A DNA stretch of 64,000 bases from a virus. Shown piece by piece: positions 13,114 to 53,455 of the stretch. How positions within the stretch are numbered: position 1 is the first letter of the stretch; each line of letters begins with the position of its first letter. Location: the IMG/VR virus record IMGVR_UViG_3300031578_004185, positions 3,779-67,778 of that record; one strand, written 5' to 3'. Made by a program: the position numbers and the translations under genes. The notes beneath the pieces were generated by a model, which had not been told where the DNA came from, did no database searches, and saw only the letters and a program-made list of their open reading frames with translations.

Positions 13114-13388
13114 TGGGAGAATACCAATGGCTACCCCTTAGCGAGATAGCCAAGTACGAGCCAGAGATGAAACGGTTCGGGGTATCCAAGGTCGCTCGCT
13201 CACCGAGAGGGTTTTTGACCGCATACCGGCGATGGTCTAGATTGTCTCTTGGTGTTCGGGATAAGTGGGTAGTAAAGAGGTCGGCGTTCATAGCCCGCCA
13301 CATGGCGCAGTACAAGGTGAACCCAACATATCGTCGGTGGCTATCGCTGGTAGCGTGGGCTTATAGACCAGACAGGAGGTTTGGCTAG
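13086..13388 (+). CDS. Basic hypothetical protein
   Basis: GVSKVARSPRGFLTAY...WVVKRSAFIARH; true start may be GTG 13113. Confidence 0.6.
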   Translation: MVRLGRCVVVGEYQWLPLSEIAKYEPEMKRFGVSKVARSPRGFLTAYRRWSRLSLGVRDKWVVKRSAFIARHMAQYKVNPTYRRWLSLVAWAYRPDRRFG

Positions 13389-14673
13389 AATGGCTATAAC
13401 AGATAAAGACTGGAATCCCGAGCACAGTTATGGGATAACAAGAAAGAGGGCTATCGAGTTGAGAGAAGATGTGGAATATCCTCGGATAAGTGCCGCTGTT
13501 TTCCACTTTGATAAACTTACCCCTGAAGAGCAAGTCATTGTCATAGGACACAAGGAGAAAGAACTAAAGGACGCTCTAGAGGAACGTAAACAGATATATA
13601 GGTCTGCTAAAGAATCGGCTGTCATAAGTCGTAAACTGAATCTGCGTCCTGGAGAGATGAGTCCCTATCCTCGCCAGAAGAAGCAGGTCAAAGAACGCAT
13701 AGAGATGTTGCAGAAGTCTGTAGATAGACTTAAGAGTAGTGTGAAGGTATCTAAACCAGCGAACAATACGACATCGGGACTTGCTGTCAAGAAAGTCAAG
13801 GGCGGCTACGAGGTAATCCATACCAAATCTGGTAATCGATTAATGCCGTTCTCTTATCCAGAGCGAGAACTGGCTACCGATTTCGCTCGGCGTGCTGGTC
13901 GAGTCGGCGTGGACTGGACACGACCTTTCCCCGAATTACAGAAGGAATCCGAGAAGATAGCAGACCTTATCCGTGGCGGTAGAAAGCCGGGGATGTTCGA
14001 GAAGGTGCTGGATATGCCGACTACCTTTCCAAAGACCCCAAGTCGTAAGCCCTTAAAGGATATGACTAAAGCCGAGCTGAAGAACCTGCGGGTCATTCTC
14101 CACGTTCTTCCCGATGGTACTCTTGAAATCAAAGAGAAAGGTACTGACAGCCTTGAGCGACAAGTGGCATCGTGGAATCCTCCGAACCGACCGGATATGA
14201 CCGAAAGGAGTTGGGTTGGTGGTTATATCAGCGGTGAACGAGTCGCAGATGATGCTAAGAGTTGGCTGGATAAGGTAGCCAAGCGATATGACCTTGATAC
14301 GGACGAGATTGTGTCAGATTCCTGGCGTGGTGGTGGGATGAGACATAAAGCATCTCCGTATAGCCTGCTCACCAATATTGTTACGGGTAAGGTGAAGACC
14401 GTGAGTGGTAGCGATACGGTGATAGACAAGGCTACCGACCTCCAAGCTATCCACGATGCCCGTTCCCAACGCTCTCGTGAATCCGATGAACGGCAATCCA
14501 ATGCCGATACCATAGAGCCGGACGACCCGAGGGTAGAGCGATGGTTACGAGACCCGGGTAGAGTGGATGTTGTCGGGATAGACACCCCCAGAAAGGGCAA
14601 GAGCCAGAAGCCCGTTCGTAAGTCCAAACGAACGGGTAAGATAGAGACACAGGTTCGTGGAGTAAGGAGATAG
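13381..14673 (+). CDS. 430-aa multi-segment protein with C-terminal RGVRR tag
   Basis: SD GGAGG; ends KPVRKSKRTGKIETQVRGVRR. Confidence 0.8.
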   Translation: MARMAITDKDWNPEHSYGITRKRAIELREDVEYPRISAAVFHFDKLTPEEQVIVIGHKEKELKDALEERKQIYRSAKESAVISRKLNLRPGEMSPYPRQKKQVKERIEMLQKSVDRLKSSVKVSKPANNTTSGLAVKKVKGGYEVIHTKSGNRLMPFSYPERELATDFARRAGRVGVDWTRPFPELQKESEKIADLIRGGRKPGMFEKVLDMPTTFPKTPSRKPLKDMTKAELKNLRVILHVLPDGTLEIKEKGTDSLERQVASWNPPNRPDMTERSWVGGYISGERVADDAKSWLDKVAKRYDLDTDEIVSDSWRGGGMRHKASPYSLLTNIVTGKVKTVSGSDTVIDKATDLQAIHDARSQRSRESDERQSNADTIEPDDPRVERWLRDPGRVDVVGIDTPRKGKSQKPVRKSKRTGKIETQVRGVRR

Positions 14674-14675
14674 GA

Positions 14676-14867
14676 GTGGGTATCCGTCGTCCATCAATCA
14701 CGAAGAAAATCGGTAAGCACCGATACGCTATCTACGCCGACCGACCTATGAACAAGGACGAAGCGGAGAGGCTTGCCGAACGATTACGGGGTAAGTATAG
14801 CAGTGTTCGGGTAGTGAGATTACAGGCCGGATGGGTCGTTTATCATTACCCGCAGTATTTGGATTAG
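14676..14867 (+). CDS. Small basic protein (family A)
   Basis: KIGKHRYAI...KDEAERLAERLRGKYSSVRVV...WVVY. Confidence 0.65.
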   Translation: MGIRRPSITKKIGKHRYAIYADRPMNKDEAERLAERLRGKYSSVRVVRLQAGWVVYHYPQYLD

Positions 14868-14884
14868 TTAGGAGGAGAAAGAAA

Positions 14885-15151
14885 ATGTCTAGCAGAAGAA
14901 CTGAACTCAGGGCAGTCAAGGACTGGAGACCTATTGAAAATTCTAGCCCCAAGCCTGTGAAGAAGGTTGCACCTGATGTGCGGATATCAAAGAATCATCG
15001 CTTGTGGAAGTACCCGTACAGCACTGAGGTACGCGAAGGGCGGGGATGGTATATAGCTTCCCAGCACCGCACAATGTCTGGTGCGTTGGCGGACGCGAAG
15101 CTGATTACCCGTAAGTATAAGCCAGTGGCTAAAGTACTCCTTGACAGGTAG
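14885..15151 (+). CDS. Small basic protein
   Basis: SD GGAGG before ATG 14885; HRTMSGALADAK. Confidence 0.6.
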   Translation: MSSRRTELRAVKDWRPIENSSPKPVKKVAPDVRISKNHRLWKYPYSTEVREGRGWYIASQHRTMSGALADAKLITRKYKPVAKVLLDR

Positions 15152-15276
15152 ACACGGGAGGGGGAACTCTAGTGTCTCAGTAGCACAACCACCTTCCTCA
15201 GTAGCCCCGACAGGTATCTGGCTAGACCGGGTTACCGATAGGGAGGCGGCCGTGATAAGGATGTTTTTCACTGCGT

Positions 15277-17467: not shown

Positions 17468-18285
17468 TTTCCTTTTACCCCCAGTCCTCTTATTCCTGTT
17501 GCTGATCCATCCAGCATCCGATACGATATCCGTATGTCTTTGAGACCCGCCTGCTCGAACCACTCTTGGATTTCGTTGGGGTTGTAGTATCTTGCCTTTG
17601 GAGCCGACATCATATCAAAGACGTCGTTCCACTTGGTTTTGAACGGAAAGTGGGTGTAGTGTCTGACGAAGGGTATCCTCGTTCTAAGTCTGCCAACCAG
17701 CTCAAATGCCAGTGCACCCACAAATGCCAAAGGATAAAGTACTCTGAGTGGCAGTCGTGTGGTGATTCTCCGCATTGGCTCGAACAGGTGTATGGTTAGA
17801 CCGTTATCCTTTCTGCCGTACACCCAAACGGATATAGTACCCCCCGGCTTTACCGTCTTCACCAGTCCCCTGAAGCCCTCCTGTGGATCAGGAAGATGGT
17901 GGAGTACTCCGATGCAAAAGGTATAGTCGAACCTGTTGTCCCACTCTGTCGGCAAATTGTATATGTCACCCCGCATGACTCTGGCATTCAGCCCCTTTAG
18001 GTTTTCTGTTGCTGACTCTACCGCCCCCTTACCAATGTCGAAGGCAACGACCTCTGCCCCGTATTTAGCAGCAAAATAGGAATGCCTACCTGCTCCGCAA
18101 CCGGCATCCAAGACTGTCTTCCCTTTGAAGAACTCCTTGTTTATTGGGGCAATGTAGCCTAAGAAATTCTCCTCATACTCCGGAAAGATATCACTGAATC
18201 TTGCCCACTCAAAACCGAAGCTGGACGCCGTGCGTTCCTTCAGTTGCTCATTTGCCCGTACAGCTTTCGTACTACGTTCTCCCAT
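17464..18285 (-). CDS. Class I SAM-dependent methyltransferase
   Basis: VLDAGCGAGR, GVLHHLPDP. Confidence 0.9.
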   Translation of the reverse strand: MGERSTKAVRANEQLKERTASSFGFEWARFSDIFPEYEENFLGYIAPINKEFFKGKTVLDAGCGAGRHSYFAAKYGAEVVAFDIGKGAVESATENLKGLNARVMRGDIYNLPTEWDNRFDYTFCIGVLHHLPDPQEGFRGLVKTVKPGGTISVWVYGRKDNGLTIHLFEPMRRITTRLPLRVLYPLAFVGALAFELVGRLRTRIPFVRHYTHFPFKTKWNDVFDMMSAPKARYYNPNEIQEWFEQAGLKDIRISYRMLDGSATGIRGLGVKGK

Positions 18286-19298
18286 GTATATTGCCCTGCC
18301 TTTCTCTTGTTATTTTCGGCCATGACTTTTGACCAATTGCTGTCACTCAGTATCAGCTTAATCGCTTTAGATGTAGATGCTGCGCTGTTGGGTACGGTTA
18401 GTGTACCGTTAACCCAATCTTCTACTATTTCCGGTATTCCGCATACTCTGGGGGCTACTACAGGTAGTCCGCTCGCCATTGCCTCCAAGATTGCTACGGG
18501 AAAGCCTTCAGAGAGGCTGGTGTTTACCAGAACATCGGCGGCGCTCAAATAAGTCGGTATATCGGTGTTGCTCACGTGCCCGCAGAATACCACCCGTCCA
18601 TCGGCCTGCCTCCTGAGATGATTTGCTTCCGGTCCATCCCCAACTAAGATGTACGTGTTCCTGTTGTCCATTTTAGCTGCTTCGACGAAGACACGCAAGT
18701 TCTTTTCGGGGCGACATCTTCCAACCGCAATTACAGCCTTCCCTTCAGCCGGCAAACTCAGCTTCCTTCTTGCTTTGCTCCGGGAAAGTACACCAAACCT
18801 GCTAGTGTCTATGCCGTTAGGGACGACCTCGACTGGTTTGTGTGTATACTTGCTCATTTCATTTGCCATGTCTGTTGTCTGTGCAATGACTCTGCTGGCA
18901 TTGTTAAATAGTAGCCGCGATATCAATCCTTTTCCAATCCAGTTCACGTATATTTCACCGCGCCCGTAGACAATATATGGTATCCTTGCCATCTTGGATG
19001 CTACGAAGGCTGTCAGAGCCATTTGAGTACCTTGTGCGTGAATTATGTCCGGTCGTACTCTTAGTATAGCTCGTACTGCTCTTGGAAGGTAAAGTAGCCC
19101 GAACAGGTATGGCACGTTAACCGACTTGATCGTGTGAACAGTTACACCCCCAATTTCACACTTAACATGCTTAGTTGCTCCCGCAATCACATGAACTTCA
19201 TGTGACCCCGATGCACATTTAGCTATTGATACTGTAGCTATCTCAGTTCCACCATTACAGAGTGGGGGGAGACCAGAAACAAGTATAGCGATCCTCAT
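18240..19298 (-). CDS. GT4 family glycosyltransferase
   Basis: VPNGID, EGFPVAILEAMASGLPVV. Confidence 0.92.
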   Translation of the reverse strand: MRIAILVSGLPPLCNGGTEIATVSIAKCASGSHEVHVIAGATKHVKCEIGGVTVHTIKSVNVPYLFGLLYLPRAVRAILRVRPDIIHAQGTQMALTAFVASKMARIPYIVYGRGEIYVNWIGKGLISRLLFNNASRVIAQTTDMANEMSKYTHKPVEVVPNGIDTSRFGVLSRSKARRKLSLPAEGKAVIAVGRCRPEKNLRVFVEAAKMDNRNTYILVGDGPEANHLRRQADGRVVFCGHVSNTDIPTYLSAADVLVNTSLSEGFPVAILEAMASGLPVVAPRVCGIPEIVEDWVNGTLTVPNSAASTSKAIKLILSDSNWSKVMAENNKRKAGQYTWENVVRKLYGQMSN

Positions 19299-20266
19299 CT
19301 GTGTACCTCATGGTATCGTTTAACGTAAGACTCGACCATGGTAAAGTAGCTTCTGCCTTCATGCTCTTCTGCTTGCGCTATTTCGACATACTTCTCCACG
19401 ATGTCAGGGTTATTTGTGTCCAGTCCCAAAACCACCATATAAAATACAGCTTCGTCGTAGAATCTCCCTGTTGTTGCTTTGTATATGGCTTCTGCCCTGT
19501 CATATAACCCAAATAACTGATACAGCCGAGCCTTGTATATTGGGAAAAATTCAGCATCAGAATATTCATTTAAATAATAGTCGCTTACGCTGGACGCTTT
19601 ATGTATATCCATTAAGTTACTGCCCTTCCGCAGAGAGTATAGTTCCAACCACCAATCAATATACTGCTTGCTGTAACATCTGTATATTAGATTGTGTACA
19701 CTGCTTAAGTACGACATATTCGATATACTCAGATTAGGACTATAGTTGTTAACACAATCGCCACTGTAATCACCAGACTTGACAGTGTATCTGCCACCCT
19801 TTAAAATAACCTCACAATTAAACGCCGGATCGTAGTACCTCTCCTCCTCATTAATATACACTACCGTAAATGTGTGGCAAGGGAACAATATACTTCTGGC
19901 TTCTATTCCTTTTATTGCTAGTAGCTTGGTTAAGAGGAACGCCTTTTGGTCACACCATCCGATACCACGTACCAAGTCAAATAGACAGGTATAATCGATT
20001 GCACTACTATCCCCCACGCCCATCCAAGGCAGGTTTTGCTCTTCGTTAACATACACCCATGAATTCAGATTCCCTACAACTTCTGTTTTCGTTAACTCGG
20101 TGTTGTCCACAACCCTATCTGCTACCCTGTGATAGGCAAACTCGGATATCATATTATCTGCGGTGACATCTAATAGTAGCCACGTCAACGGGAATACTAA
20201 GTATAAAATTGTTATACAGATGATCACTATAGACGTTATGCGGGTTATCCGTATAGCTGCCTTCAT
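19295..20266 (-). CDS. Membrane-anchored transglutaminase-like protein
   Basis: N-terminal TM; GWCDQKA...CHTF...YYDP (Cys-His-Asp). Confidence 0.6.
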   Translation of the reverse strand: MKAAIRITRITSIVIICITILYLVFPLTWLLLDVTADNMISEFAYHRVADRVVDNTELTKTEVVGNLNSWVYVNEEQNLPWMGVGDSSAIDYTCLFDLVRGIGWCDQKAFLLTKLLAIKGIEARSILFPCHTFTVVYINEEERYYDPAFNCEVILKGGRYTVKSGDYSGDCVNNYSPNLSISNMSYLSSVHNLIYRCYSKQYIDWWLELYSLRKGSNLMDIHKASSVSDYYLNEYSDAEFFPIYKARLYQLFGLYDRAEAIYKATTGRFYDEAVFYMVVLGLDTNNPDIVEKYVEIAQAEEHEGRSYFTMVESYVKRYHEVHR

Positions 20267-35788: not shown

Positions 35789-35962
35789 TTTATCTTCTTA
35801 TCCTCCTTCGTGCTTTATTCAAGTGCCTTTGCGTTTTGGTAGTCTTTATTTTAGGCAACTCCCTAGTTTTTATCACCTTACCACCCCGGACAGTTTGTCT
35901 CACCCGCTTCCCCGATGAGTAGGTTCTTACTCTATGGGTTACTCCACCAAACATAATAGACA

Positions 35963-37069
35963 TTAGCTGTCATCCGCCCTAACTCGCGTAGAAAGTTGTG
36001 GGGCCGACTTCGAGTTGTAAATTTTGAAATAACACGGGTAGTCTACAACCATCTTCGGTCTCTTCCCAGCTAACTTCAATCCTAGCCCTTTCAGGGTACC
36101 CAACACCTCGTCCTCGGTCATATCCCCATCAGTAGCCAGCAGGTCTACCATCTCTTCGTAGTTGTCAACACCTGCCCTCAGTACCTCTAGGACAATCCGT
36201 TCTTCGTCCGTTTCCGGCTGGTACCGCTTGCCATACTCGGTGATTCGTATCTTCCCATCTCCCAGATGGCTTCTCGGTCGCCCGGCGTCTACCGGTATCG
36301 GGAATGGCCGTCCTATCGGTAGTATCAAGTCCTTTCGCTTGTCGTATGCCACTCTCTGCACATAGTAAACGAATCCTGTGATATTGGCGGCGGACTTGGT
36401 ACAGGTTACCATCCAGTTGATGTAGGGCTTCGCGGTAAACCTGTCCAAGTCATCCGTAGTCTGTATCGTTCCCAAGACGAAGCTATCCAGATGCCTGTAC
36501 ACCTTATGGATAGCCCCCATCGTCTTGTTCATGGGACTGTGAGGTTCTCGTTTGTAGCAGTACTTCCAGAACTCGGTGAGGTACAGCACGGAGTTTTTGA
36601 GCATAATCTCCCCCGCACCCTTTACCCACTCGTCGGCAGCCTTCTCCAAGACTGCGTTGACATCGGCTACTTTCGCTACTCCCTTCGTTGCCTGCCTCAT
36701 CTTGGCGAAGTCGTCGTGGAGGACATGTTCATTGAACAACCCGCCATAAGGTCCGTAGAGGTCTCTAGGCGGTTCATCACGCAGTATGCGCTTCCATGGG
36801 AAGTATCGCTTGATAGTGTGGCTCAGGTAGTTACCGAACAAGTCCTTACCTGTGCCAGGGACACCATACACGACACACAAGCCCCACAGACCAGTCACTT
36901 CCCTTGGCACAGTGAACAGGCGGTATAGCAAAGTAGCTCGCCGCCTGTCTAACATAGACAGATCGGAGCCGAACTTGATTCCCGACTCGTCGTCGTACCC
37001 TACAGATTCGTCGTAGAGTTCAAAGGTATTTCTATCCGGCTTATTCCTTCCCCCAAGCGTCGACACCAC
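35963..37069 (-). CDS. Zot/pI-like (FtsK-HerA clade) P-loop morphogenesis/packaging ATPase
   Basis: Walker A GVPGTGKD, Walker B-like VLYLTE, YRHLDSFVLGTIQTTDDLD motif; C-terminal wHTH-like region. Confidence 0.75.
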   Translation of the reverse strand: MVSTLGGRNKPDRNTFELYDESVGYDDESGIKFGSDLSMLDRRRATLLYRLFTVPREVTGLWGLCVVYGVPGTGKDLFGNYLSHTIKRYFPWKRILRDEPPRDLYGPYGGLFNEHVLHDDFAKMRQATKGVAKVADVNAVLEKAADEWVKGAGEIMLKNSVLYLTEFWKYCYKREPHSPMNKTMGAIHKVYRHLDSFVLGTIQTTDDLDRFTAKPYINWMVTCTKSAANITGFVYYVQRVAYDKRKDLILPIGRPFPIPVDAGRPRSHLGDGKIRITEYGKRYQPETDEERIVLEVLRAGVDNYEEMVDLLATDGDMTEDEVLGTLKGLGLKLAGKRPKMVVDYPCYFKIYNSKSAPQLSTRVRADDS

Positions 37070-38819: not shown

Positions 38820-39005
38820 TTAGCCCTTCCTCCCGATTGACATGACCACGCCTATCAGGATCGCGGCCGCCACGATCACCCGGAGCAGGTTCTGGAGGAT
38901 GACGGAACCAGTATCGGTTCCGGTTATGATGTTGGTGATGAGGCTGTCAATCACGACGAAAGCTACAACGCCGATTACGACGGTAACAAGTCCTCGTACT
39001 GACAT
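38820..39005 (-). CDS. Putative major capsid protein, spindle-virus-like helical hairpin (61 aa)
   Basis: Two hydrophobic helices joined by NIITGTDTGS loop, basic C-terminus; own promoter and terminator. Confidence 0.6.
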   Translation of the reverse strand: MSVRGLVTVVIGVVAFVVIDSLITNIITGTDTGSVILQNLLRVIVAAAILIGVVMSIGRKG

Positions 39006-40989: not shown

Positions 40990-43826
40990 AAGGTCGGACT
41001 CCTTTCGGACACGACACCCGCAGCGAATAGTATTATGGACAAAACTACCAGATAAAGAGGGAATATGTTGTGGTCGAAAGCGACCAATCCTCCCAGTGCG
41101 ACCCCCGCGATAATTACCACGATACCTCGATGACCTCGTAACCACCGAGCTGCTCCGACTGTAACGAACAGCAGGAACGCCAAGCCGAGCCAGCGCCATA
41201 CCCATATCTCGGTCAGGGTAGTGTTATCGGATACCATCGTGATAAACGGACGGACAGGGTTAGCCAGCGTCGCCGCTTTGGTTACCGTTCCGTCTCCATG
41301 TATATCTCCCCCTGCAGGCGTAACGAGTATGTCTCTGGTCTCCCTATCCTCGGCTGTTCCCGGTGCAGGTTGGTCTTCAGCAGTAAAGCTACCGAGGGCG
41401 ACGGCTACTCCTGTGGGGTTAACCCCCCAAGTTATTCTGCCGTCGTTAGCACCAGTCTCGTCTACTACAGTCCCGAAGTCGACAGTGAAGGTGTCGCCAG
41501 CGTCTACGTTAGCCGTAAGAGCAGCAAACTGTAGCTCGTCAGTAGCGGCGAGGAAGTCGGTAATCACCGCCGTTTCGCCTTCAGGGGCAAGACCATCGGT
41601 GGTCTCGGTGATTATCAATCTCGCCCCGTTCCAGTAGTCGTCAGCCTGTGTGAGAGCAGCGTCTATAATCTTGACATCGGTACTACCCGCGTCGGCGGTA
41701 CTGTCCTCGCCAGTATTGTCAACTATCGTGTCGGGTTGGTATTTTAGTACCTCTGCCCCGCCGACATCAATGGTCATATAGTCCATATAAGGCATAACAT
41801 TGTTTTGCATCAATAACCAGTCATTAGCAGTGTTAGGAACACTCGCTCCTAATAGTCTAGCATCATCTTCCATAGTCCCATCAATAGAAATACTTAGTGT
41901 ATGTGGTCTAGTACCAACAATCCAAGATGTGTTTGCGCCTGCTGTGCCTGCGTTTGCCCCAGAGCCGTAAGAGGTTATATTAACTCCTGTCCCCTCATCA
42001 ATATACCAGAAGTCTGTCTCATCCCCCGGTGGTGTGCCATTATACAAAGCTGTCTCTTCAGCAGCAGATAAATCATCTGTCCCAACACAGAAATCACATA
42101 TACTCCCGATGAACGGGCTCGCACTGCTTGTATTTGTATAACAGCCTATATAAAAGTTATTTGTAGTGCCGATTGCCTCGGCGTTTGCGTTAGTATCGGC
42201 AACCCCGTTATCTACTCTCAATCTTGCTCCATTACTGGCAGCACCACCACCAACTGCCTGCCCCATACTGGCAATTACATGATACCACTGCCCCCCATTC
42301 CAACTAGCTTGGGTACTGTAATAAGCAAACTTTGTAGCACCTGCTACTACGTTATTAAAATAGAGCTTCCCGTTGAAGCTCCTGAGGTAAAGATTAAAAG
42401 TAGTTGTCCCGCTATACTTGTTAAACAAATACATATTATCGTCTGCACCAGCCTCATAGTCCTCATCCAGTTTGAACCAGAAGCTAATCCACAGTTTAGC
42501 TGAGGCGTCATAAATATCACCGCAGTCTATTCCTTTATTAGTAGCATCGGGGAAGTATAGTAGTGTCCCTTCAGCTAGATTGGAAGTTGTCCCTGCTTTA
42601 GTGTTGATTGTATATTCACCACTGTCAATACTTGTGGCAGTTACATCTAGGTCAGCTGGACAGATAGCTATAGTGTTAGACATCCACTGTTGTCCTGCCG
42701 AAAGAGTAAAAACTCCCGGGTCATCACTTACTGCATTTAACTCTCGCCTAGCACTGCCTATAGCTACACCCTCAGCATTAGCAGCAACATTGTTAAGCCC
42801 ATTCCCATAGTTGGCAGGATAAGCATTGACAGTTACGTTGTCATCATTTAGTTCCATAGCAAACCACAGCGTATTTCTAGCACCCCACGAAGGTACTAAG
42901 TTAGGGGGGTCAGGATTAGCACTATTCCCATTGGTAGCGACCCCGTTTTCTGGCACCTCTGAATAGCCAGTAATGCGGTATATAGTGTAAGCAGTCATTT
43001 CAGCAGCATCGGTAGTAACAGTGAAAGGGTCATCTTCGCTAGCACTAGCTACCTTATACCAAGCCCCACCTCTAGCATCTGGTGCACCAAAAGTGTCCTT
43101 CTGAAACAGATTAGTCCATCCTCCGGGAAAGGCTATAGCAGGAGTCCCATCAGTCCCAAAGAACACTAACAGTAGGTCGCCAGCTACAACCCCAGCAGGT
43201 AGGTTAACAGTATGGTTCAGTCCATTAACGGCGTTATTGCCACCATTAGTTGTTGCAACGGTAGGAAAAGCTCCTCTATGTATCAGTGCAGAGGTAATCT
43301 CATCTTCAGCACTAACATAAGTCCTGAAAGCATCTTCTTTATAAACCAAGTTCTTATCAGCACCAGCGTCAGTATTGATATACCCGCTCTGCTCAATCTC
43401 AAAGGTATCACCAAGCTCAATAGTAGCGTCATCAGGGATAGTTATGTACCCGTCATGCCCGGGGATAATATCCATACTGGAAGCAGGAGTGCTTCCCGTA
43501 GTGTAGTAGAGATTGACCTGCGAATCGGCAGGGACGGCGGTAGCAGTAAGTGTCCTGTCTTGGGCAACCATCCAAGGCTTCTCGGAACCCCCCAAGGTCT
43601 CGACACGGGTATCCAGCGCGTCCGCTCGCATAAAGCCGTTATCCGCCATCCATTGATTATTGGCGTCGGTCTGCGTCGCCAGCATATCGTAGGCGTTGCC
43701 GCTATCCTCGGTGATAGCGAACGAGGCACTGTACGCAGCAGCTAGCACAGGAGCCGCAACAACTACCAGAGCGAGGAACACCAAGGCTAACGATAAAACA
43801 CGACTAAGTAGCTTGGTCTTAATCAC
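40986..43826 (-). CDS. Exported LamG/ConA-domain protein with C-terminal TM anchors (putative spike/tail)
   Basis: Signal peptide; WISFWFK...WYHVIAS...FYIG...FIGSICD LamG pattern; 3 C-terminal TMs. Confidence 0.75.
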   Translation of the reverse strand: MIKTKLLSRVLSLALVFLALVVVAAPVLAAAYSASFAITEDSGNAYDMLATQTDANNQWMADNGFMRADALDTRVETLGGSEKPWMVAQDRTLTATAVPADSQVNLYYTTGSTPASSMDIIPGHDGYITIPDDATIELGDTFEIEQSGYINTDAGADKNLVYKEDAFRTYVSAEDEITSALIHRGAFPTVATTNGGNNAVNGLNHTVNLPAGVVAGDLLLVFFGTDGTPAIAFPGGWTNLFQKDTFGAPDARGGAWYKVASASEDDPFTVTTDAAEMTAYTIYRITGYSEVPENGVATNGNSANPDPPNLVPSWGARNTLWFAMELNDDNVTVNAYPANYGNGLNNVAANAEGVAIGSARRELNAVSDDPGVFTLSAGQQWMSNTIAICPADLDVTATSIDSGEYTINTKAGTTSNLAEGTLLYFPDATNKGIDCGDIYDASAKLWISFWFKLDEDYEAGADDNMYLFNKYSGTTTFNLYLRSFNGKLYFNNVVAGATKFAYYSTQASWNGGQWYHVIASMGQAVGGGAASNGARLRVDNGVADTNANAEAIGTTNNFYIGCYTNTSSASPFIGSICDFCVGTDDLSAAEETALYNGTPPGDETDFWYIDEGTGVNITSYGSGANAGTAGANTSWIVGTRPHTLSISIDGTMEDDARLLGASVPNTANDWLLMQNNVMPYMDYMTIDVGGAEVLKYQPDTIVDNTGEDSTADAGSTDVKIIDAALTQADDYWNGARLIITETTDGLAPEGETAVITDFLAATDELQFAALTANVDAGDTFTVDFGTVVDETGANDGRITWGVNPTGVAVALGSFTAEDQPAPGTAEDRETRDILVTPAGGDIHGDGTVTKAATLANPVRPFITMVSDNTTLTEIWVWRWLGLAFLLFVTVGAARWLRGHRGIVVIIAGVALGGLVAFDHNIFPLYLVVLSIILFAAGVVSERSPTL

Positions 43827-44344
43827 CTAGTACCTCCCATACTGGTCGGTGGAGTATAGGGTCGCTGAGTCCTTTGGGGTCGTTCAGGTCGCTTCGACCT
43901 CGGGGGCGCACCCATAATGTCCTCTTCAGTCACCCGTGTCAGGTCAGCCAAACTCTCCTCGTCTCCCACGTCCTCTTCGTCCAGCTCGAACAAGTCGTCG
44001 GTGTACATGTCGTTATCTTCCTCTTGGGGAACCTCAAAGAGGTCGCTCATATCGTTCTTGGGCTTCTCCGCTTCCGGTCCACCTTTCCCCCAGAGCGTGT
44101 CTCCTGTCCTTTGTAGGGTAGGGGCAACAGGCACAGGAATACTGACAGGACGGGCAACGGCAGGAACGGGCGACGGCTCAGGAGGCTCGGTACTAGTGCT
44201 GGGTACACCTTCGCCTTGCTCGTCCAGCGAGTCCCACCCACCTTCCTGTTCAGTTTCTGCGCTGAGTGCATCCCCGACCTCTAGCTCGGCGAGTTCCTCT
44301 TGTTCCTGCTCGTTCAGGTCATTCAGCTCTTCATCTTTAGACAT
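43823..44344 (-). CDS. Acidic low-complexity protein with C-terminal PTSMGGTR tag
   Basis: D/E-rich, 173 aa. Confidence 0.7.
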   Translation of the reverse strand: MSKDEELNDLNEQEQEELAELEVGDALSAETEQEGGWDSLDEQGEGVPSTSTEPPEPSPVPAVARPVSIPVPVAPTLQRTGDTLWGKGGPEAEKPKNDMSDLFEVPQEEDNDMYTDDLFELDEEDVGDEESLADLTRVTEEDIMGAPPRSKRPERPQRTQRPYTPPTSMGGTR

Positions 44345-44476
44345 TTACTTGACCCCCTTACCGACTCTACTCCGCAGTTTTTTTACAAGGTACCGCATAA
44401 GTGGGACAACTGTGAACACTACTATCCCAATTAGAGCGTAAACAAACACTCCGAACGACGATGGTATTTCACTCAT
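44345..44476 (-). CDS. 43-aa single-TM protein
   Basis: Manual: MSEIPSSFGVFVYALIGIVVFTVVPLMRYLVKKLRSRVGKGVK. Confidence 0.55.
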   Translation of the reverse strand: MSEIPSSFGVFVYALIGIVVFTVVPLMRYLVKKLRSRVGKGVK

Positions 44477-47400
44477 AGTCTCACACTCCTTACCACGGTT
44501 GGCTGGTTGTCCCTTTTGCCGATCCGCTTCGGTTTCTTCTTGCTCATCTTAGCTCGGTTGACCCCCTTGCTACTCACGCCCTCTGTACTATGGGCGTCAG
44601 ACCCTCTGAGCCACCCGGGGTCCTCGTCAAAGTACAAGTCCCTTGGTTCGGGTTCAACCTGCCTTATTCTAGCAGACTCCACCCGCTCTTCAGCTACTCT
44701 CTTTCTCTCCTCCACTACCTCTGGACGATTAACGCCCCGCATCTCGATTTCCCCTTTTACCCTGTCAGGCTTGGTAGTAGCGGATATAGCCGTCCTTGAT
44801 ACGCTGTGAGCGGGCTTGACAGTACCAATCTCCGAGCGAGATATGCCTTGACTCGGCACGGACATGCCCTTCGTAGGACTGTCAACTCCTCTACCGACAT
44901 TGGTCTCCAGACCCTTACCACCGACCTCTATCCGTTGTCCATAGTCGCTGATAAAGAAGTCCACTATGCCGAAATCGGCATTAACCTTCTCAGGGACTTT
45001 AGCCCTTGGTTTGCCTATCATCTGCACCGTCCCCTTGACCGTCTTTAGGTGCGTGTTCTTTGCCCCCATTGGGACTACGCCTCTAGGGAGCGTCTGCATC
45101 TTCGGCTGGTCCCACGGAGGAGGTGCCCATCGCCAGAACAGACCATGCTTCACTGTAATGCTCCCCGGCGGTAACTCTGCTCGCTTACCGGATATCCGTG
45201 GTCTGACCAAGGCAACTGGTGGGGGCGGCGTAACAGGTATTATTCTGGGCGTCGGTCTAGGGGTCACCACAGACATAATAGGTGTTTTCACAGGCGTAAC
45301 CGGCGTTTTTCTCGGTGTCTCTCTCGGTGTCTCTCTCGGTGTCTCTCTCGGTGTCTCTCTCGGTGTCTCCCTAGACGTTGTTCTGGGAGTCGTCCTAGGT
45401 GTTATCTCGGGAACCAATCTTGGGGTGCCCCTAGCACTAATCTCCGGCACAGGCTCCCCTGCTACACGCGTTGGTGCGAACCCGGATGTGACTGGAACTC
45501 TCTCAGCGAAGATTGTTTGTTCCCTAGCCTCGGAGGGTGGGATTTCCCTAATTCCAGCCATAGCACGAGGAACTATTGGGATAACGCGCAACATTCTCCG
45601 TTCACGGAAAGGAACGAGGAAATCAGTAGGCCCGGCTCTTGGAACCTCAGCAAGTGTTGCTTTAACTCGCCTAGCATTGTCGTTCGAGGCGTACAACAAA
45701 TCCCGCTCAGGGGTCTTAAAAGTAGCCTTCAAGTTCTTAACATCCCTAGCCTTCTTTGCTCCCCGTAATATCTCATACTCAGGAGTTCCTTTGGGGTACT
45801 GCTTTATCCCCGCAGTCGGTAGGTGTTTATCCACCACAACCAACTTGGAAGTATCAAACCCCCGCTTGTAAAGTTCTATGTACAGAGACGGGCTGACGGC
45901 TGCTGAATCCCCGGAGCGAAGAACACGGACAGCACCAATCTCCGGCTCGTATACCCACTCTCTCGCCTTCCAGTCGTACCACTTGTTCATTGGTATCTTC
46001 AATTTCAGGCTAGCAGGTTCGCCGTCAAACATATATGTCCCAAAGGCGGAGTGTTCAGTGGTCTTGCCCATGTGGACTTCGGCAGGACGCATATTTTTAA
46101 CTCTAATCCCCAGTTCGGATATTATTTGCTCCTCAGCGAACTCCTTTAGTGTCCCTCTACCAAAGGGTCGACCAACTCTCGGTTGCCCTCTCACATCTAT
46201 TTGCCCACCGATGGTATTCCAGACTCCAGCAAGATCAGTCGCAGCCGTATCGGTTCCTACGATATATGCCCCCTTGATAGTGGGGTGTTTAAGCATCACA
46301 GCCGTTCTCGGAACGACCCAGTTATCACCGAATTCCCGTACCGGGTGATAGTATGGGTCTCTCGTTCGTACCAACCTACCATTTCGGTCAACAAAAGGAA
46401 CGTCAGCCAACCCAGAAGGGTCTCCGGCTTTCTCTAACTTGGAGGCTAATTCAGGGGTAGACAATCTTCGACTTGGGTCTCTACCTTCCAAGAACGCGCG
46501 GACAGCAACGTCGACAGGACTGGATTTCATCTCCTGCAACGTTATTCCCCGGCTGTACCACATCTTCGGCGAGGTGACGATATCACTAGCCCTAGCTCTT
46601 GGTCTAATAGCTTTGCCAGGGTCAAACCAGTTCTCTATCGCCACTTTAGGGCGACTAACGAATTTGGTATGATACAACTGTCGCATAGTTGGTAATACTC
46701 TGCCCTCGGCGATTGCCGCGTTCGTTGCCGTAATGACAATCGGCATACTCTGACCGGCTCTGATACGTTGCCCGGTTACTATATCCATACCCGCGATCGG
46801 GCTGTAAGTTGTTATGGTCGCCACTTCGGGCATCGTCTCCCCACCTGTGGCAACCTTATCTAACCTACGGACAGGAGCGAACACCTTGGAAGTAAACCCT
46901 GCAGGGGTAACCATCTCCAATTCCCAAGTGGGTCTAATTTCACCGCTCGGTTCTTGTGACCAGTGAAACTTGTAAACAGGGTAAACACCTTGGGGCAGAG
47001 CATCGGGATGCCCGGGAGGTAATAGTGCTCTCCGTTCTACTTCACGCCTGAGCAGGTCGTTCGCCGCGGATACGGGGTCGCCAAAGTTGCGCTTCTTGGC
47101 TGCCATCCATATCCTCTCGTTCCGCATCTGCTTAGAAACCGCTTCGTGGACAACCATAGGCAAATCCCGTATGTCTTTAGAGCTGTAGCGGAGCATTTTG
47201 CCACCAGGAGAATACCAATCCTTTATCTTAGGAATCGTATCCTTGGGTATCACGTAGTCCTTGAACTTGGGACTGGACGGGTTCTCTAAAAGTTCACGCA
47301 ATACCGTCTCCGCAGTCTTCTTGGTAACCAACGCACGATTGGCGACGCGAAATGAGTTGACTACTTCCTGCGGTATCTTGCCCAAGTACCACCCAGCGAC

Positions 47401-49902
47401 ATCGCCGGAGAAGTTGGGTGACCACCACTCCATTGAACCCGTGGGAGTGACATCCTTGCCGAGTTTGCCTATCTGCCGGAGATAGGTATTGATGTCGGGT
47501 TTAACGCTAAATAAAATTCGCTGGTCAAGAGACACCTGTGCTGGATTACTCCTAGCCCTGATAGATGTCTCCCTCGGTGTTCCCCCGACGACACCCCCTC
47601 TTACCGTCTTGATCTGACCTGTCAACTTGCTATACGACACAAACTGCTCAGCATAGGCAAGAGCGTCTTCTGGTCGCTTGAACATTTTGAGTGCTTGCTC
47701 TACGGCACGAGGGAGCTTGCCTCCGTATATCTTCTCCACCTGTTGTACCAAATCCACAGCATATTCAGGGGTCATAAACCCCTTCAACTGCGTCCTAGGG
47801 ATACTAATCTCCAACGACAAGTTAGGTGGCTCAAAACTCCCCGGACGTACAGCTTGGCGGACCTCCTTGAACACAAACTTGCCACCACCAATAGCGACAC
47901 CGGCAAACAAAAGGGCTTCGACACCAACAGCCAATACTTTTTCCGTGGGACTAGCTTTAGGGCTAAGAACGGTTTTTGCGGCGTCAGGTAGAAGCAGGAC
48001 GCCTAACCCGGCAGGTACACCCCTCTTTACTATCTCGCCTGTTAAGCGACCAACTGTTGTAATGGCACCCCGGGCAACGGTTGGTATCACTCTCATCCCC
48101 GTCATTCTCGCCAATGTTGCGGAACCGATTGAACTAACAGGGAGACCCAGCATCATAACATCCAGAGCAGCCACCAACCCACCGATAGCCCACTCTTTTG
48201 CTGTTACCCTCGTTCCATAGTTGTAATACTCCAACCCAGCCTTCAGGTCGTCAGATGTCTCATACCCTATATCCTCGGCAATAGCCTGAACCTTCGCCGG
48301 ATCCGCTTTGTCTAGTTTCTTGACATCGAACGAGCCATCGGGTTTCACATAATCGCGCAGGGCGGATAATTCAGTCTTATAGGTCTTTGTTAGCTGTGCT
48401 TTGGCTTCTGGTAAAGTCAACCGCTTCCCAATAGGGGTTGTAATCGGCTGTATCGGGGCAAAGAGCAACTGCAGGGCGAGGTTTTTGCTGGATATGTGTT
48501 CAATGTCTTTCGCAAAGGCGGAGAAGACACTACCCTTCGTCCAATCCTTGTCGAACAGGACGGCAACCGCTCGCTTTTGGTCGTCATTGAGTTGCCGATA
48601 GGCTTCAGTGTATGACCCCTTGACAGGCTTGATATCGAGGTCGTCTAAGGCTCTACCTAACGAGCTTAGTTCCCCAGAGGACAACCCAAGACGCCTCGCA
48701 AATCCTGTTCCGGTAGGTACAACACCCTTGTCTAAGTGGGCGGCGATACTACCAGTAGTTTTATTCCACTGAGTAACTGCGGACAGAATATCGTCCCCAA
48801 AACCAGCATCACGTAGTGTCTTCATTCCATCGGGGTTCTTCCGAACAAACTCAGCCATAGCAGGGAGCGTGTACTCGCGGAGTGAGGGACCGAACGCCCT
48901 CATATATGCCCCTTCGGGAAGTTTCTCCACGAAGCCAGCACTAGATAGTCGTTGCAGGGCAACCTGTTGTCTTGCATACGCTTTGGTGGTAGCAATCTCA
49001 CCCACCTTATACTTACCAGAGTACACCTCCCCTAATTCTTCCGGGGATAACCCCATCTCGTCCCTCTGCTTCGCAAACGCCTCCCACACTAGGACAAACT
49101 TGCCCTTTTTGATGTTCCCAGGGTCGTCGGGGTCAGGCATAAACGCCTTATACTTCCCACTCTGGATCTCGGCTAATTGCTTCTCGGCTTCGGCAAGGTT
49201 CTTGGCATATCCAGCAGAAACCTGCTGGGATATCCAGTCCTGTTTAGCCTTCTCTTGCCCTCTGGCTTGCGCAACAGTATAATATACAAAGCTCCCGTCC
49301 TTCTCGCCGGCGTAGACACTACCTCTAGGGACAAAACCCAGCTGGACAGCCCTATTAAACTTAGCCTTGCCTGTGAGTTTGCTATAATCTGCTAACTGCT
49401 TGTTGATAGTCTCGGATACCCTAGACGGGAGAGCGACATCGGAGTGAGTTTTAATGAAGTCCAGTTGCACAGCCAGTGGAGCACCGGCTTTTCGCATAGC
49501 ACTTAGCTGGATATCAGGTCTGGCTCCACGAACCTTGGCAGGCAGGTAAGCCTCAACCGTAGCAGGTCTCTCCTTGGTAGGAGGAACACCAACGAACTCT
49601 ACAGGCTCTGCAGGTGGAACCACAGCAGGTTCGGGAGCACCGATGAATTCTACAGACGCTTCCGCTTTAGCCCTTGCTTTCTCGGCTCTGGCTTTCTTCT
49701 CAGCCTCCTGAGCCTTGTAGGCTTCTGAACCCTTCCATGGTGTACCCTTCTTCCACGTCCCTGCTTTGCGAGCAGCTTTTTTAGCGTCTACTCTAGCTCT
49801 CTGCTCCGCTTTCTGCTTCGCATAGCTGGGTTGCGGAGTAGTAGGTGGTGCCGAGGTAGTCGCTACCGAGGTAGTCGCTACCCCTCTTGTATCATCAGCC
49901 AT
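44473..49902 (-). CDS. 1809-aa putative internal virion protein with TM hairpin, Nudix-like segment and C-terminal tag
   Basis: Hydrophobic region near aa 570-680; GGQID...EFAEEQIISELG; ETPR repeats; ends PTVVRSVRL. Confidence 0.75.
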   Translation of the reverse strand: MADDTRGVATTSVATTSAPPTTPQPSYAKQKAEQRARVDAKKAARKAGTWKKGTPWKGSEAYKAQEAEKKARAEKARAKAEASVEFIGAPEPAVVPPAEPVEFVGVPPTKERPATVEAYLPAKVRGARPDIQLSAMRKAGAPLAVQLDFIKTHSDVALPSRVSETINKQLADYSKLTGKAKFNRAVQLGFVPRGSVYAGEKDGSFVYYTVAQARGQEKAKQDWISQQVSAGYAKNLAEAEKQLAEIQSGKYKAFMPDPDDPGNIKKGKFVLVWEAFAKQRDEMGLSPEELGEVYSGKYKVGEIATTKAYARQQVALQRLSSAGFVEKLPEGAYMRAFGPSLREYTLPAMAEFVRKNPDGMKTLRDAGFGDDILSAVTQWNKTTGSIAAHLDKGVVPTGTGFARRLGLSSGELSSLGRALDDLDIKPVKGSYTEAYRQLNDDQKRAVAVLFDKDWTKGSVFSAFAKDIEHISSKNLALQLLFAPIQPITTPIGKRLTLPEAKAQLTKTYKTELSALRDYVKPDGSFDVKKLDKADPAKVQAIAEDIGYETSDDLKAGLEYYNYGTRVTAKEWAIGGLVAALDVMMLGLPVSSIGSATLARMTGMRVIPTVARGAITTVGRLTGEIVKRGVPAGLGVLLLPDAAKTVLSPKASPTEKVLAVGVEALLFAGVAIGGGKFVFKEVRQAVRPGSFEPPNLSLEISIPRTQLKGFMTPEYAVDLVQQVEKIYGGKLPRAVEQALKMFKRPEDALAYAEQFVSYSKLTGQIKTVRGGVVGGTPRETSIRARSNPAQVSLDQRILFSVKPDINTYLRQIGKLGKDVTPTGSMEWWSPNFSGDVAGWYLGKIPQEVVNSFRVANRALVTKKTAETVLRELLENPSSPKFKDYVIPKDTIPKIKDWYSPGGKMLRYSSKDIRDLPMVVHEAVSKQMRNERIWMAAKKRNFGDPVSAANDLLRREVERRALLPPGHPDALPQGVYPVYKFHWSQEPSGEIRPTWELEMVTPAGFTSKVFAPVRRLDKVATGGETMPEVATITTYSPIAGMDIVTGQRIRAGQSMPIVITATNAAIAEGRVLPTMRQLYHTKFVSRPKVAIENWFDPGKAIRPRARASDIVTSPKMWYSRGITLQEMKSSPVDVAVRAFLEGRDPSRRLSTPELASKLEKAGDPSGLADVPFVDRNGRLVRTRDPYYHPVREFGDNWVVPRTAVMLKHPTIKGAYIVGTDTAATDLAGVWNTIGGQIDVRGQPRVGRPFGRGTLKEFAEEQIISELGIRVKNMRPAEVHMGKTTEHSAFGTYMFDGEPASLKLKIPMNKWYDWKAREWVYEPEIGAVRVLRSGDSAAVSPSLYIELYKRGFDTSKLVVVDKHLPTAGIKQYPKGTPEYEILRGAKKARDVKNLKATFKTPERDLLYASNDNARRVKATLAEVPRAGPTDFLVPFRERRMLRVIPIVPRAMAGIREIPPSEAREQTIFAERVPVTSGFAPTRVAGEPVPEISARGTPRLVPEITPRTTPRTTSRETPRETPRETPRETPRETPRKTPVTPVKTPIMSVVTPRPTPRIIPVTPPPPVALVRPRISGKRAELPPGSITVKHGLFWRWAPPPWDQPKMQTLPRGVVPMGAKNTHLKTVKGTVQMIGKPRAKVPEKVNADFGIVDFFISDYGQRIEVGGKGLETNVGRGVDSPTKGMSVPSQGISRSEIGTVKPAHSVSRTAISATTKPDRVKGEIEMRGVNRPEVVEERKRVAEERVESARIRQVEPEPRDLYFDEDPGWLRGSDAHSTEGVSSKGVNRAKMSKKKPKRIGKRDNQPTVVRSVRL
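45311..45370 (-). repeat. 12-bp tandem repeat x5 encoding ETPR
   Basis: ctcggtgtctct x5. Confidence 0.9.
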
Positions 49903-51372: not shown

Positions 51373-51576
51373 CTATTTACCTCCTATAGTCCACACGATA
51401 TAATAAGGACTACGAGAGACCAAAGTCTGCCCCCTCGTCACGCGCGCTAACTTGCCTCGCTTTCGCAGGACAGAAGCAAAGTTGCGCGCTTCCGACTTGG
51501 TATCAAAATCACGAGAGAAGCGATATTTGATACCGCCGAAGGTTCTATAGCCAAACTGTTTCCGCCTGTTAGCCAT
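51373..51576 (-). CDS. Small basic protein (family A)
   Basis: RTFGGIKYRFSRDFDTKSEARNFASVLRKRGKLARV...YIVW. Confidence 0.7.
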   Translation of the reverse strand: MANRRKQFGYRTFGGIKYRFSRDFDTKSEARNFASVLRKRGKLARVTRGQTLVSRSPYYIVWTIGGK

Positions 51577-51807: not shown

Positions 51808-51996
51808 TTACTGGTATTGCTTCGGCAGTAACTGGACAAGCGCCCACCACTTACCGACCTTTCTTACTTTAGCTGTTCTGGGAAAGTCAGATCTCCTGAC
51901 CTGCCTCTTTGCATTGAACTTGGTCCGGTGACGGGACAATACGTAGTACTTGTGTCCCCTGATAACTACTACCGACCGTCCCCCGTAGGTTTCCAT
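51808..51996 (-). CDS. Small basic protein (family A-like)
   Basis: IRGHKYYVLSRHRTKFNAKRQVR...AKVRKVGKWWAL. Confidence 0.6.
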   Translation of the reverse strand: METYGGRSVVVIRGHKYYVLSRHRTKFNAKRQVRRSDFPRTAKVRKVGKWWALVQLLPKQYQ

Positions 51997-52130: not shown

Positions 52131-52376
52131 TCAAGCACTTGTCAGGCAGTCAGCACCCAAGAAGTAGTCCCGCTTCTCACCCTCAAACCTGACCCAGTAA
52201 TTCAGCTTGTATGGGACGTTGCGATACGCTGACCGCATCAGACCGTGCCCTTTAGTCAGTATCTCTTTCCCCCGGACGACACCTACTTTACCCACGAATT
52301 GAGGGTAAATCTTCCTCGCCCAAGAGGTGAGTTTAACTTTACTGCCTACCTTGCGGCCCACTCGCGGCTTAGACAT
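52131..52376 (-). CDS. SH3/KOW-like small protein
   Basis: KVGSKVKL...GKVGVV...YWVRFEG. Confidence 0.6.
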   Translation of the reverse strand: MSKPRVGRKVGSKVKLTSWARKIYPQFVGKVGVVRGKEILTKGHGLMRSAYRNVPYKLNYWVRFEGEKRDYFLGADCLTSA

Positions 52377-52378
52377 AG

Positions 52379-52738
52379 TTATCTCCTTATCCCCCGCATA
52401 CTGGTCGGGGTACTAGATGACCGCTTGGATGATTTCTTAACCCTCGGTTTTCTGGGCTTCGGGCTATCCGGCATATCCGGGAACTGTTTGCCCTTACGGA
52501 TATTGGACAGTATCATTACTGCCTCTTTGCGGTCGAAAGCATCGTAGAGATTGTCGCCGTGTTCTATGTAGAACGGCTCACCCATTTCGCCAGTATCCTC
52601 GTCATACCCAGCACTGTCAATATCAATACGGATTTTTGCCCCCGTCTTGGCATCCACTACGGTCTCACGGGCATCCGTTCCTGCCGTGTAATTTACAATG
52701 TCTCGAACACTACCTGACATTTTAGTATCCATATCCAT
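52379..52738 (-). CDS. Acidic domain + basic C-terminal tag
   Basis: Ends KKSSKRSSSTPTSMRGIRR. Confidence 0.75.
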   Translation of the reverse strand: MDMDTKMSGSVRDIVNYTAGTDARETVVDAKTGAKIRIDIDSAGYDEDTGEMGEPFYIEHGDNLYDAFDRKEAVMILSNIRKGKQFPDMPDSPKPRKPRVKKSSKRSSSTPTSMRGIRR

Positions 52739-52744
52739 ACCTCC

Positions 52745-53068
52745 TTACCTTATCCCTCTGACACTCGTGAGAGTAGATGACCGCTTGCTAGACTTGCGCT
52801 TGGCAGTCGGCTTCTTGGCTCTCGGTTTAGAGTGCTTCCACTCGTATTCCTCCATCGTGTAGGGCATATAGGCTTCGGTTTCCTCTTCAGCACCTTCTCG
52901 CACTAGGGCGGACAGACCAGCAGTGCCGTCCCCCCAGCGGTTAGTCGCCTTGCCCGTACGCCCGTTAACTAAGACACCGATACCGTCCTCGTCTCCATAT
53001 AACTCACCAGGGAACACAAGCAGTTCGGATGTAGTCCCTTTACCTGTTTTCCTATTCACGAATGGCAT
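52745..53068 (-). CDS. Acidic domain + basic C-terminal tag
   Basis: Ends KRKSSKRSSTLTSVRGIRR. Confidence 0.75.
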   Translation of the reverse strand: MPFVNRKTGKGTTSELLVFPGELYGDEDGIGVLVNGRTGKATNRWGDGTAGLSALVREGAEEETEAYMPYTMEEYEWKHSKPRAKKPTAKRKSSKRSSTLTSVRGIR

Positions 53069-53071
53069 AAT

Positions 53072-53455
53072 CTACCTCCTTATCCCGCGAAGGCTAGTCG
53101 GGCTTGAACCGCATCTAGCCCTACTCGGCTTCCGTTTAGGAGACTTTTTAGACCCACCCCGTACTTTGGATAGAGATATTCCGTATCCGTCAGGCAGTGG
53201 CTCAGTCAAGGTATCCTTGACGAACCTCCGTGCCTCATCTGGTAAGCTCTCAAGGCTAACCAGTTTGCCGAGATGGGAATACGAACCCATCTGGCGGTAT
53301 TCGCCCGCATACTGACCGAATCCTTGCGGGTGGTATGGGTTATCATTGAACCCGTACATATCCAGCATCCCCGGCGTATTGACGCTAGGAACTACCAGCG
53401 TGTAGCGGTCTATGGTCTTACCGCCGTTATCATAGATTCTTACCTGTGATGACAT
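53072..53455 (-). CDS. Hypothetical domain + basic C-terminal tag
   Basis: YDNGGKTIDRYT N-terminus; ends GSSPTSLRGIRR. Confidence 0.75.
   Translation of the reverse strand: MSSQVRIYDNGGKTIDRYTLVVPSVNTPGMLDMYGFNDNPYHPQGFGQYAGEYRQMGSYSHLGKLVSLESLPDEARRFVKDTLTEPLPDGYGISLSKVRGGSKKSPKRKPSRARCGSSPTSLRGIRR

Follow-up and report, generated by a model that had tools for sequence, protein, structure and literature searches.

A C-terminal peptide tag shared by unrelated proteins of an uncultivated virus and its relatives

Tagged proteins in one viral genome

The DNA analysed here, hereafter the window, is a stretch of 64,000 nucleotides (nt) that spans positions 3,779 to 67,778 and represents most of the 68,001-bp single-contig virus record IMGVR_UViG_3300031578_004185. 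Its genes are located on the plus strand up to about 15.2 kb and on the minus strand beyond. Six unrelated proteins encoded in the window, called A to F below, share a short C-terminal tag, for which this genome mostly uses the form R-G-[IV]-R-R. The genes, with lengths in amino acids (aa), and their tags are located as follows.

13390..14673, plus strand: protein A, 427 aa from the ATG by translation (430 aa from the TTG at 13381)
about 14566-14643, plus strand: basic linker of protein A
14644-14670, plus strand: tag of protein A, ETQVRGVRR
43823..44344, minus strand: protein B, 173 aa, an acidic N-terminal part followed by a basic linker and the tag
43826-43852, minus strand: tag of protein B, PPTSMGGTR
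44473..49902, minus strand: giant protein C, 1809 aa, with two hydrophobic segments, TPRE repeats, a conserved beta domain, a disordered tail (by prediction) and the tag
44476-44502, minus strand: tag of protein C, QPTVVRSVRL
52379..52738, minus strand: protein D, 119 aa, a small domain and a basic linker
52382-52408, minus strand: tag of protein D, TPTSMRGIRR
52745..53068, minus strand: protein E, 107 aa, a small domain and a basic linker
52748-52774, minus strand: tag of protein E, TLTSVRGIR
53072..53455, minus strand: protein F, 127 aa, a phrog_4496 domain and a basic linker
53075-53101, minus strand: tag of protein F, SPTSLRGIRR

A preliminary description had singled out these six C-termini, and its observation of a common tag on six unrelated proteins is confirmed. 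Translation reproduced the ends given for the open reading frames (ORFs) at 13381, 43823, 44473, 52379 and 53072, while the ORF at 52745, listed as ending in RGIRR, ends in TLTSVRGIR, with one arginine fewer. The pattern R[GS][IV]R[RL] occurs 6 times in the six frames of the 68-kb genome, and 4 of these occurrences are located at exact C-termini. The basic linker rich in K, R, P and S that had been noted ahead of the tag is above background in both charge and composition. The net charge of the 26 residues preceding the tag is +6 to +9, or +2 in protein B, as compared to a background mean of +1.1, and 54-77% of these residues are K, R, P, S or T versus 29% in the background. The body of protein B is itself very acidic.

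Two DNA strings reported as common to different tails, one in D and E and the other in B and D, were both recovered at the positions given for them. Each occurs twice, with zero occurrences expected by chance, and similar DNA of about 45 nt is common to the D and E tails. The shared DNA fits a recent copying of the tag module, as far as can be judged from the sequences.

Conservation and enrichment of the tag

Relatives of the virus were identified with a 61-aa hydrophobic protein and an ATPase, both described below. They comprise the IMG/VR genomes G001 (54 kb), G002 (64 kb) and G003 (50 kb) as well as 58 metagenome loci, with most of the metagenome contigs covered only in parts. Tails of the same type are present in the relatives on orthologs of A, B and C and on further unrelated small proteins, as exemplified by SAPSGLGGIR, SPAGFGGLR, TASGMKGIS, TTSGIGAWFGGIRR, QTALGGMRR, ITTLKGYKF, PHTSMGGLR, GSTSLRSIRE, LTSLAGMRY and KPTVVRGIRQ. 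The consensus of 31 core-anchored tails is P-[TS]-[SG]-Φ-[G/R]-G-Φ-R, where Φ is a hydrophobic residue, as in all motif patterns given here, and in 25 of these tails the core is followed by 0-1 residues only. Across the virus family, the consensus can be written as P-[TS]-[ST]-Φ-[G/R]-G-Φ-R-(x), directly ahead of the stop. The form with G-G is the most frequent in the relatives, whereas the tags of the window are mostly R-G.

Conservation was extensive within each of three ortholog families. In a public protein collection, 33 of 39 homolog clusters of the A family have a tail of the type T-[QS]-Φ-[RG]-G-Φ-R, and 36 of 44 clusters of the B family end in PPTS[MLI][GR]G-Φ-[RGQ]. All 9 aligned orthologs of C end in T-x-Φ-x-[GS]-Φ-[RK]-x. 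Within these families the linkers drift in both sequence and length while the tail stays. The small accessory proteins yielded fewer counterparts, namely an ortholog of F in G001 (66% identical, ending in SPSGIQRMR) and a homolog of D in G002 (41% identical). Protein A has no homolog in G001, and the giant protein C had no match when used as a query in IMG/VR. Altogether, at least 10 related viral genomes keep the tag, on the three ortholog families as well as on a number of unrelated small domains.

To score C-termini, we used a motif model of 7 columns. The B-family orthologs on which it was trained came from the public protein collection, and the B of the window was not among them. Among 115 gene ends of the window, the six tagged ORFs obtained ranks 1-6, with scores of 20.5, 20.1, 17.8, 15.4, 11.6 and 6.5 bits, followed by 1.4 bits for the next gene end. 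Protein D was at the top with 20.5 bits and protein E scored 15.4 bits. Applied to 458,134 six-frame positions of the relatives, the model gave 26 matches of >=12 bits, of which 18 are located <=3 residues from a C-terminus, where about one would be expected. Among these 18 are the non-homologous D and F, a 150-aa G002 protein, and orthologs of both A and C. The C-terminal enrichment proposed earlier as a check is thus found in the window genome and in the relatives.

The linker and tag behave as an add-on to proteins of different origin. They are appended to DUF2958, GP88, phrog_4496 and phrog_23287 domains, families that normally stand alone, and 13 homologs of the phrog_4496 domain of F in unrelated phages (75-150 aa) have neither linker nor tag. 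In the A family, many matches share only the approximately 80 C-terminal residues (…DPG..DV.GIDTPRK, linker and tag), and the N-terminal parts differ. Protein C was modelled with a pLDDT of about 90 in its conserved C-terminal beta domain, which had no PDB match at E<=0.001, and below 50 in the tail, which is predicted to be disordered. As shown by the sequence comparisons, the linker and tag thus appear as a module on two core proteins (B and C), on A and on changing small accessory domains. The suggestion that the tag moves as a module agrees with the same tail on unrelated bodies, with the untagged F domains elsewhere and with the common tail DNA. Ahead of its basic linker, protein B has conserved acidic-hydrophobic blocks in its N-terminal two thirds (EDNDMYTDDLFE, DLSDLT and V..EDIMG), and it is conceivable that B is an acidic partner, as an adaptor or chaperone, of the many basic tails.

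A feature that had escaped the preliminary description is that, in all six cases in the window, the final codons of the tag hold the Shine-Dalgarno site for the gene that follows. The junctions read as follows.

A: GTA AGG AGA TAG GA GTG
B: ATG GGA GGT ACT AGG TGA, with a GTGA overlap start, the GTG being that of a 946-aa membrane protein
C: GTA AGG AGT GTG AGA CTA TGA, with an ATGA overlap start
D: ATA AGG AGA TAA CT ATG
E: ATA AGG TAA GGAGG T ATG
F: ATA AGG AGG TAG ATT ATG

The ending [IV]-R-R in the window genome is therefore RTAAGGAGR read in frame. Gene ends of this kind are common throughout the genome. A Shine-Dalgarno site is located within the last seven codons of 45 of the 115 gene ends, distributed over the three frames as 16:12:17, and the frequency of R and G in the last three residues is about double that at other positions. 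Look-alike ends that have neither linker nor PTS occur at 11793 (FIGGTR), 12932 (KGYRR) and 62118 (KLARR). Protein C ends with V-R-S in the window where G001 has L-G-G, the ribosome-binding site having moved by one base. A clear case of a ribosome-binding site that generates a shared ending, and a control for the tag, is provided by two unrelated proteins of G001 (21883-22551 and 22584-22970), which both end in QRMR, encoded by ATG AGG TAG just before the next start.

These observations raise the possibility that the peptide has no function of its own and arose from embedded ribosome-binding sites together with recent duplication of the D, E and F tails. The relatives speak strongly against it. 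There, 17 of the 31 tags contain no ribosome-binding site, and for at least 9 a separate site follows the stop codon. The Gly, Arg and Thr codons of the tag vary freely, with four Arg codons and all four Thr codons in use in the window alone, and the P-T-S-Φ part lies upstream of the site and outside it. In addition, three ortholog families keep the tail while their linkers drift. A pure ribosome-binding-site artefact was rejected in view of the C-terminal enrichment, the tags without a site in the relatives and the family-wide conservation of the tail, and we consider any version of the explanation that denies the peptide a function to be very improbable. The overlap explains the choice of AGG-AGR codons in the window genome, and may be behind its preference for R-R, but not the motif, because 17 of the 31 tags of the relatives hold no such site. 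More generally, tag codons that double as the ribosome-binding site of the next gene illustrate that overlaps at gene ends can both shape and mimic protein motifs. The comparisons support the tag as a peptide module under selection that is appended to unrelated proteins, and we regard it as real since dozens of related viruses keep the peptide.

The virus and its structural genes

No terminase, portal, HK97 capsid or encapsulin gene was found in Pfam and PHROG searches. PF04454 (encapsulin, Linocin_M18) had no match at E<=1 in the four genomes G000-G003 in a search that was positive in control genomes, and the only match to PF05065 in the four was a sub-threshold one of 14 bits in G001. In the conserved block downstream of B and C, there are genes for large membrane proteins, of which one has a lectin-like domain, for the 61-aa protein, for a number of small membrane proteins and small basic proteins, for a winged-helix protein and for a P-loop ATPase. 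The genes for B and C are located in conserved synteny with this block, and their translation is coupled to that of the membrane-protein and 61-aa genes. The proteins of the structural module had no PHROG or Pfam match. The main features of this part of the genome, including C-termini that are discussed below, are the following.

31267-32466, minus strand: 399-aa core protein, 55% identical in G001 and G002, Wzy_C-like by protein atlas
35963..37069, minus strand: Zot/B204-like P-loop ATPase, AlphaFold model with pLDDT 80
37574-38347, minus strand: membrane protein ending in NALGVQ, about 0 bits, rank 14 of 115
38820-39005, minus strand: 61-aa protein with two hydrophobic helices, 65-100% identical over the 58 metagenome loci, ending in MSIGRKG, about 0 bits, rank 12 of 115
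39115-41205, minus strand: 696-aa membrane protein ending in SLAGGRRV, about 0 bits, rank 8 of 115
51373-51576, 51808-51996 and 53836-54084, minus strand: examples of small basic proteins
54942-57644, minus strand: family A DNA polymerase

Genomes that show about 50% identity in their other proteins are 98-100% identical in the 61-aa protein, which occurs as two tandem copies in some of the relatives (15072-15260 and 15439-15627 in L092; 9481-9678 and 9800-9988 in L095). It had no Pfam or PHROG match. It is presumed to be the main virion protein of a virus family not yet described, and is a candidate docking surface for the tag. In the relatives L032, L041 and L060 the gene for A is located just upstream of the gene for the 61-aa protein. 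We considered whether the tag mimics the ends of the 61-aa protein or of the 696-aa membrane protein, and rejected this on their ranks and scores of about 0 bits. The membrane proteins of the structural block do have faintly tag-like ends directly after the last hydrophobic helix, which are also kept in the relatives; a likeness of these sequences to the tag is unproven.

The ATPase, for which Pfam gave no match, had been described as Zot-like, and the predicted fold agrees with this in being closest to the N-terminal domain of Zot and to B204 of STIV2. The top Foldseek match of the model was the Zot N-domain 2r2a (E 1.1e-6, TM 0.53 by target), the next match in the PDB was the STIV2 packaging NTPase B204, and the protein atlas also pointed to Zot, as a lead only. 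Unlike the inovirus pI protein, which has a C-terminal membrane anchor, the window ATPase has no hydrophobic segment in either alignment or model, and its C-terminal part is predicted to be winged-helix-like. The ATPase is one candidate for reading the tag. When it was co-folded, from an 18-row alignment, with the 60 C-terminal residues of A (4-row alignment), the score was 0.01 relative to a mark of 0.32, which is not evidence either way.

The conserved 399-aa protein was examined as a capsid candidate and rejected, since it looks like a membrane protein of the Wzy_C or O-antigen-ligase type. Its gene is located between the structural block and a 17-kb sugar-pathway cluster, and the protein may be an oligosaccharyltransferase for the glycosylation of proteins on the virion surface. 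The region from the DNA polymerase to the giant protein C encodes many small basic proteins of 50-100 aa that look paralogous, share a pattern like ...A..FA..LRK.G..ARV....YYVW and have no tag; similar proteins are encoded in the relatives (1050-3634 in L092 and 25630-25848 in G002), and they could be DNA-condensing. The family A DNA polymerase, located at 17881-20604 in G001, is 58-61% identical among the relatives. Its N-terminus is extended by about 190 residues which, by eye only, look like a domain of the uracil-DNA glycosylase type. A family B polymerase gene is located at the start of the window in the same genome.

Neither DNA nor protein comparisons recovered relatives among GenBank phages, and a search of 185,579 species genomes with the ATPase and the 61-aa protein yielded no relatives and no provirus. 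The sole hint of a host is a virus-like contig of 22.9 kb (L096; JAQTTS010000005.1) that is binned in a Dehalococcoidales genome assembly. It contains a homolog of A that is 80% identical (9221-10474) and has the same layout as positions 1-20 kb of the window, with small plus-strand genes, the A homolog and then a sugar-pathway cluster on the minus strand.

Possible roles of the tag and comparison with known systems

Our favoured reading, to which we assign a probability of roughly 0.4, is that the tag is a docking peptide that brings proteins into the virus particle. The basic linker would ride on the viral DNA, and the terminal peptide would latch onto one conserved component of the assembling particle, such as the near-invariant 61-aa protein, the Zot/B204-like ATPase or another core protein, so that diverse tagged proteins would be co-packaged and delivered with the genome. 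A peptide kept so well on many bodies should need a single reader that is equally conserved. Most of the conserved positions of the tag carry no charge (P, T/S, S, Φ, G, Φ), an indication of a protein pocket and not of DNA, and the unconserved polybasic linker suits riding on DNA; it is for this combination that incorporation into the virion is favoured. The particle appears to be non-icosahedral and membrane-associated.

Several points weigh against incorporation. The virus is known from its genes alone, and we infer the presence of the tagged proteins in the particle; for the reader of the tag there are candidates only. Neither an HK97 nor an encapsulin shell gene was found in the four genomes G000-G003, and the analogy with encapsulin cargo loading, discussed below, is therefore limited to form. 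Encapsulin cargo has far less basic linkers, so that in the tagged proteins DNA binding alone might suffice. Protein A of the window is encoded in the opposite-strand block, away from the structural genes. Finally, the motif is short, and its likeness to other short motifs can be coincidental.

The same evidence of conservation would apply if the tag docked to a partner with no role in packaging, for example an unfoldase or protease for which it served as a degron, a chaperone, or a replication or assembly factory, thereby setting the lifetime or location of the proteins in the infected cell. The tagged accessory proteins are located among small early-looking genes, and basic C-terminal recognition signals for ClpX, such as that of the MuA type, are established. 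A degron is less expected on B and C, which are universally tagged and sit in a structural block coupled to membrane-protein genes, and no protease or unfoldase gene was recognised among the about 65 ORFs of the window that were scanned. We consider a non-packaging partner unlikely, although the most probable of the alternatives. Somewhat less probable is that linker and end together form a tail that binds nucleic acid much as SPKK or AT-hook motifs do, in which the end itself contacts DNA in a DNA-condensing nucleoprotein. The net linker charge of +6 to +9, the S/T-P-K-K-like strings in D, E and F and the many other small basic viral proteins, such as the one at 35790-35963 that ends in RRRIRR, are in line with such a tail. 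The distribution of conservation is not, since uncharged conserved positions next to an unconserved basic linker are typical of a peptide that binds in a protein pocket.

We see still less reason to think of the tag as a site of processing or modification, either by glycosylation of P-T-S through the viral glycan machinery and the Wzy_C-like protein or by cleavage at G-G. The virus does encode several GT4 glycosyltransferases, an aminotransferase and a radical SAM enzyme in addition to the conserved Wzy_C-like membrane protein, and G-G is the predominant form of the tag in the relatives. Oligosaccharyltransferases of the Wzy_C family are known to modify the C-terminal Ser of pilins, and G-G is the cleavage site in ubiquitin-like precursors and double-glycine leaders. 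However, neither a signal peptide nor a membrane segment is present in A, B, D, E or F, so that these proteins would not meet an outward-facing transferase, and the prevalence of R-G in the window and the lack of a recognised protease among the scanned ORFs argue against cleavage.

If incorporation into the virion is the function, the tag would mark candidate co-delivered proteins, perhaps with anti-defence roles, and could serve as an engineering tag. Being present on core and accessory proteins across an uncultivated virus family, it offers an experimental handle, predicts which proteins travel together and can be used as bait for its reader. A broader scenario, which we put forward as doubtful, is that tail-less double-stranded DNA (dsDNA) viruses of a lineage not described before, probably budding or filamentous and possibly of Dehalococcoidia, load changeable effectors and a giant protein into a non-icosahedral particle via a C-terminal peptide convergent with that of the encapsulins. 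If true, this would be the first address-label system for such virions and would provide a portable tag for loading foreign proteins.

Peptide address labels that load proteins into shells are known from encapsulins, bacterial microcompartments and the heads of phage T4. To our knowledge, no such label is known for membrane-associated, non-icosahedral viruses of prokaryotes, the assembly of which is poorly understood. Address tags are thus familiar as a kind, while no description of the motif strings was found in the literature, nor of the virus group beyond one preprint on the IME1 elements of Dehalococcoidia. These have been proposed to be budding or filamentous dsDNA viruses (bioRxiv 10.64898/2026.09.15.751708), and they resemble the virus in gene content, being dsDNA elements that have a Cas RAMP-like gene, small hydrophobic structural proteins and a pI/Zot-like ATPase and that lack the hallmark genes of tailed phages. 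The IME1 elements are 21-28 kb in size as compared to 50-85 kb here, where two DNA polymerases and a glycan cluster are also present. The abstract and sections 6 and 9 of the preprint describe no tag. By gene content, IME1 is the nearest described kind of virus and not the nearest kind of tag.

The preliminary description had likened the tag to the signal of the T4 internal proteins (IPI-III and Alt), with which it has in common that one short peptide is present on otherwise unrelated viral proteins. The comparison fits poorly. The T4 capsid-targeting sequence lies at the N-terminus, attaches to the scaffolding core in a prohead of the HK97 type, is cut off by the prohead protease and loads proteins for co-injection, whereas the tag is C-terminal and neither a prohead nor, among the about 65 ORFs scanned, a protease family was recognised in the window. 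Substrates of type IV secretion, such as VirE2 and VirF of Agrobacterium, have C-terminal signals with loose charge patterns that are read by the coupling ATPase VirD4. Like the tails described here, these are unstructured, net-positive, Arg-bearing C-termini of unrelated proteins; in type IV secretion such proteins accompany DNA, and a P-loop ATPase recognises them. The tag is instead a fixed motif of 9 residues, Pfam scans of the large ORFs of the window revealed no VirD4-type coupling protein or VirB-type channel genes, and the only assembly-type ATPase here is nearest to Zot and B204.

The targeting peptides of encapsulins include NTGGDLGIRK in T. maritima and PLTVGSLRRGG in M. xanthus, with a consensus of DGSLGIGSLKG, and sit on flexible linkers of 10-20 residues (PMC7925596). 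Like the tag, those of family 1 are located at or near the C-terminus, follow a disordered linker and occur on unrelated cargo proteins. Compared by eye, and with the caution that very short motifs demand, the encapsulin cores V-G-S-L-R-R and I-G-S-L-K may resemble the tag forms M-G-G-L-R, L-G-G-M-R-R and M-G-S-M-R in that R or K comes after two hydrophobic residues with small residues (G or S) in between, a pattern that can be written Φ-G-[GS]-Φ-[KR]. Encapsulin linkers are rich in P, A and G, whereas those of the tag are strongly basic and 20-30 residues long, and where an encapsulin system has a shell gene in the operon or genome, the virus has structural genes of a membrane type. The likeness may be convergent or coincidental. 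In form, the encapsulin targeting peptide is the nearest known thing to the tag, as a possible analogy of mechanism rather than a family assignment.

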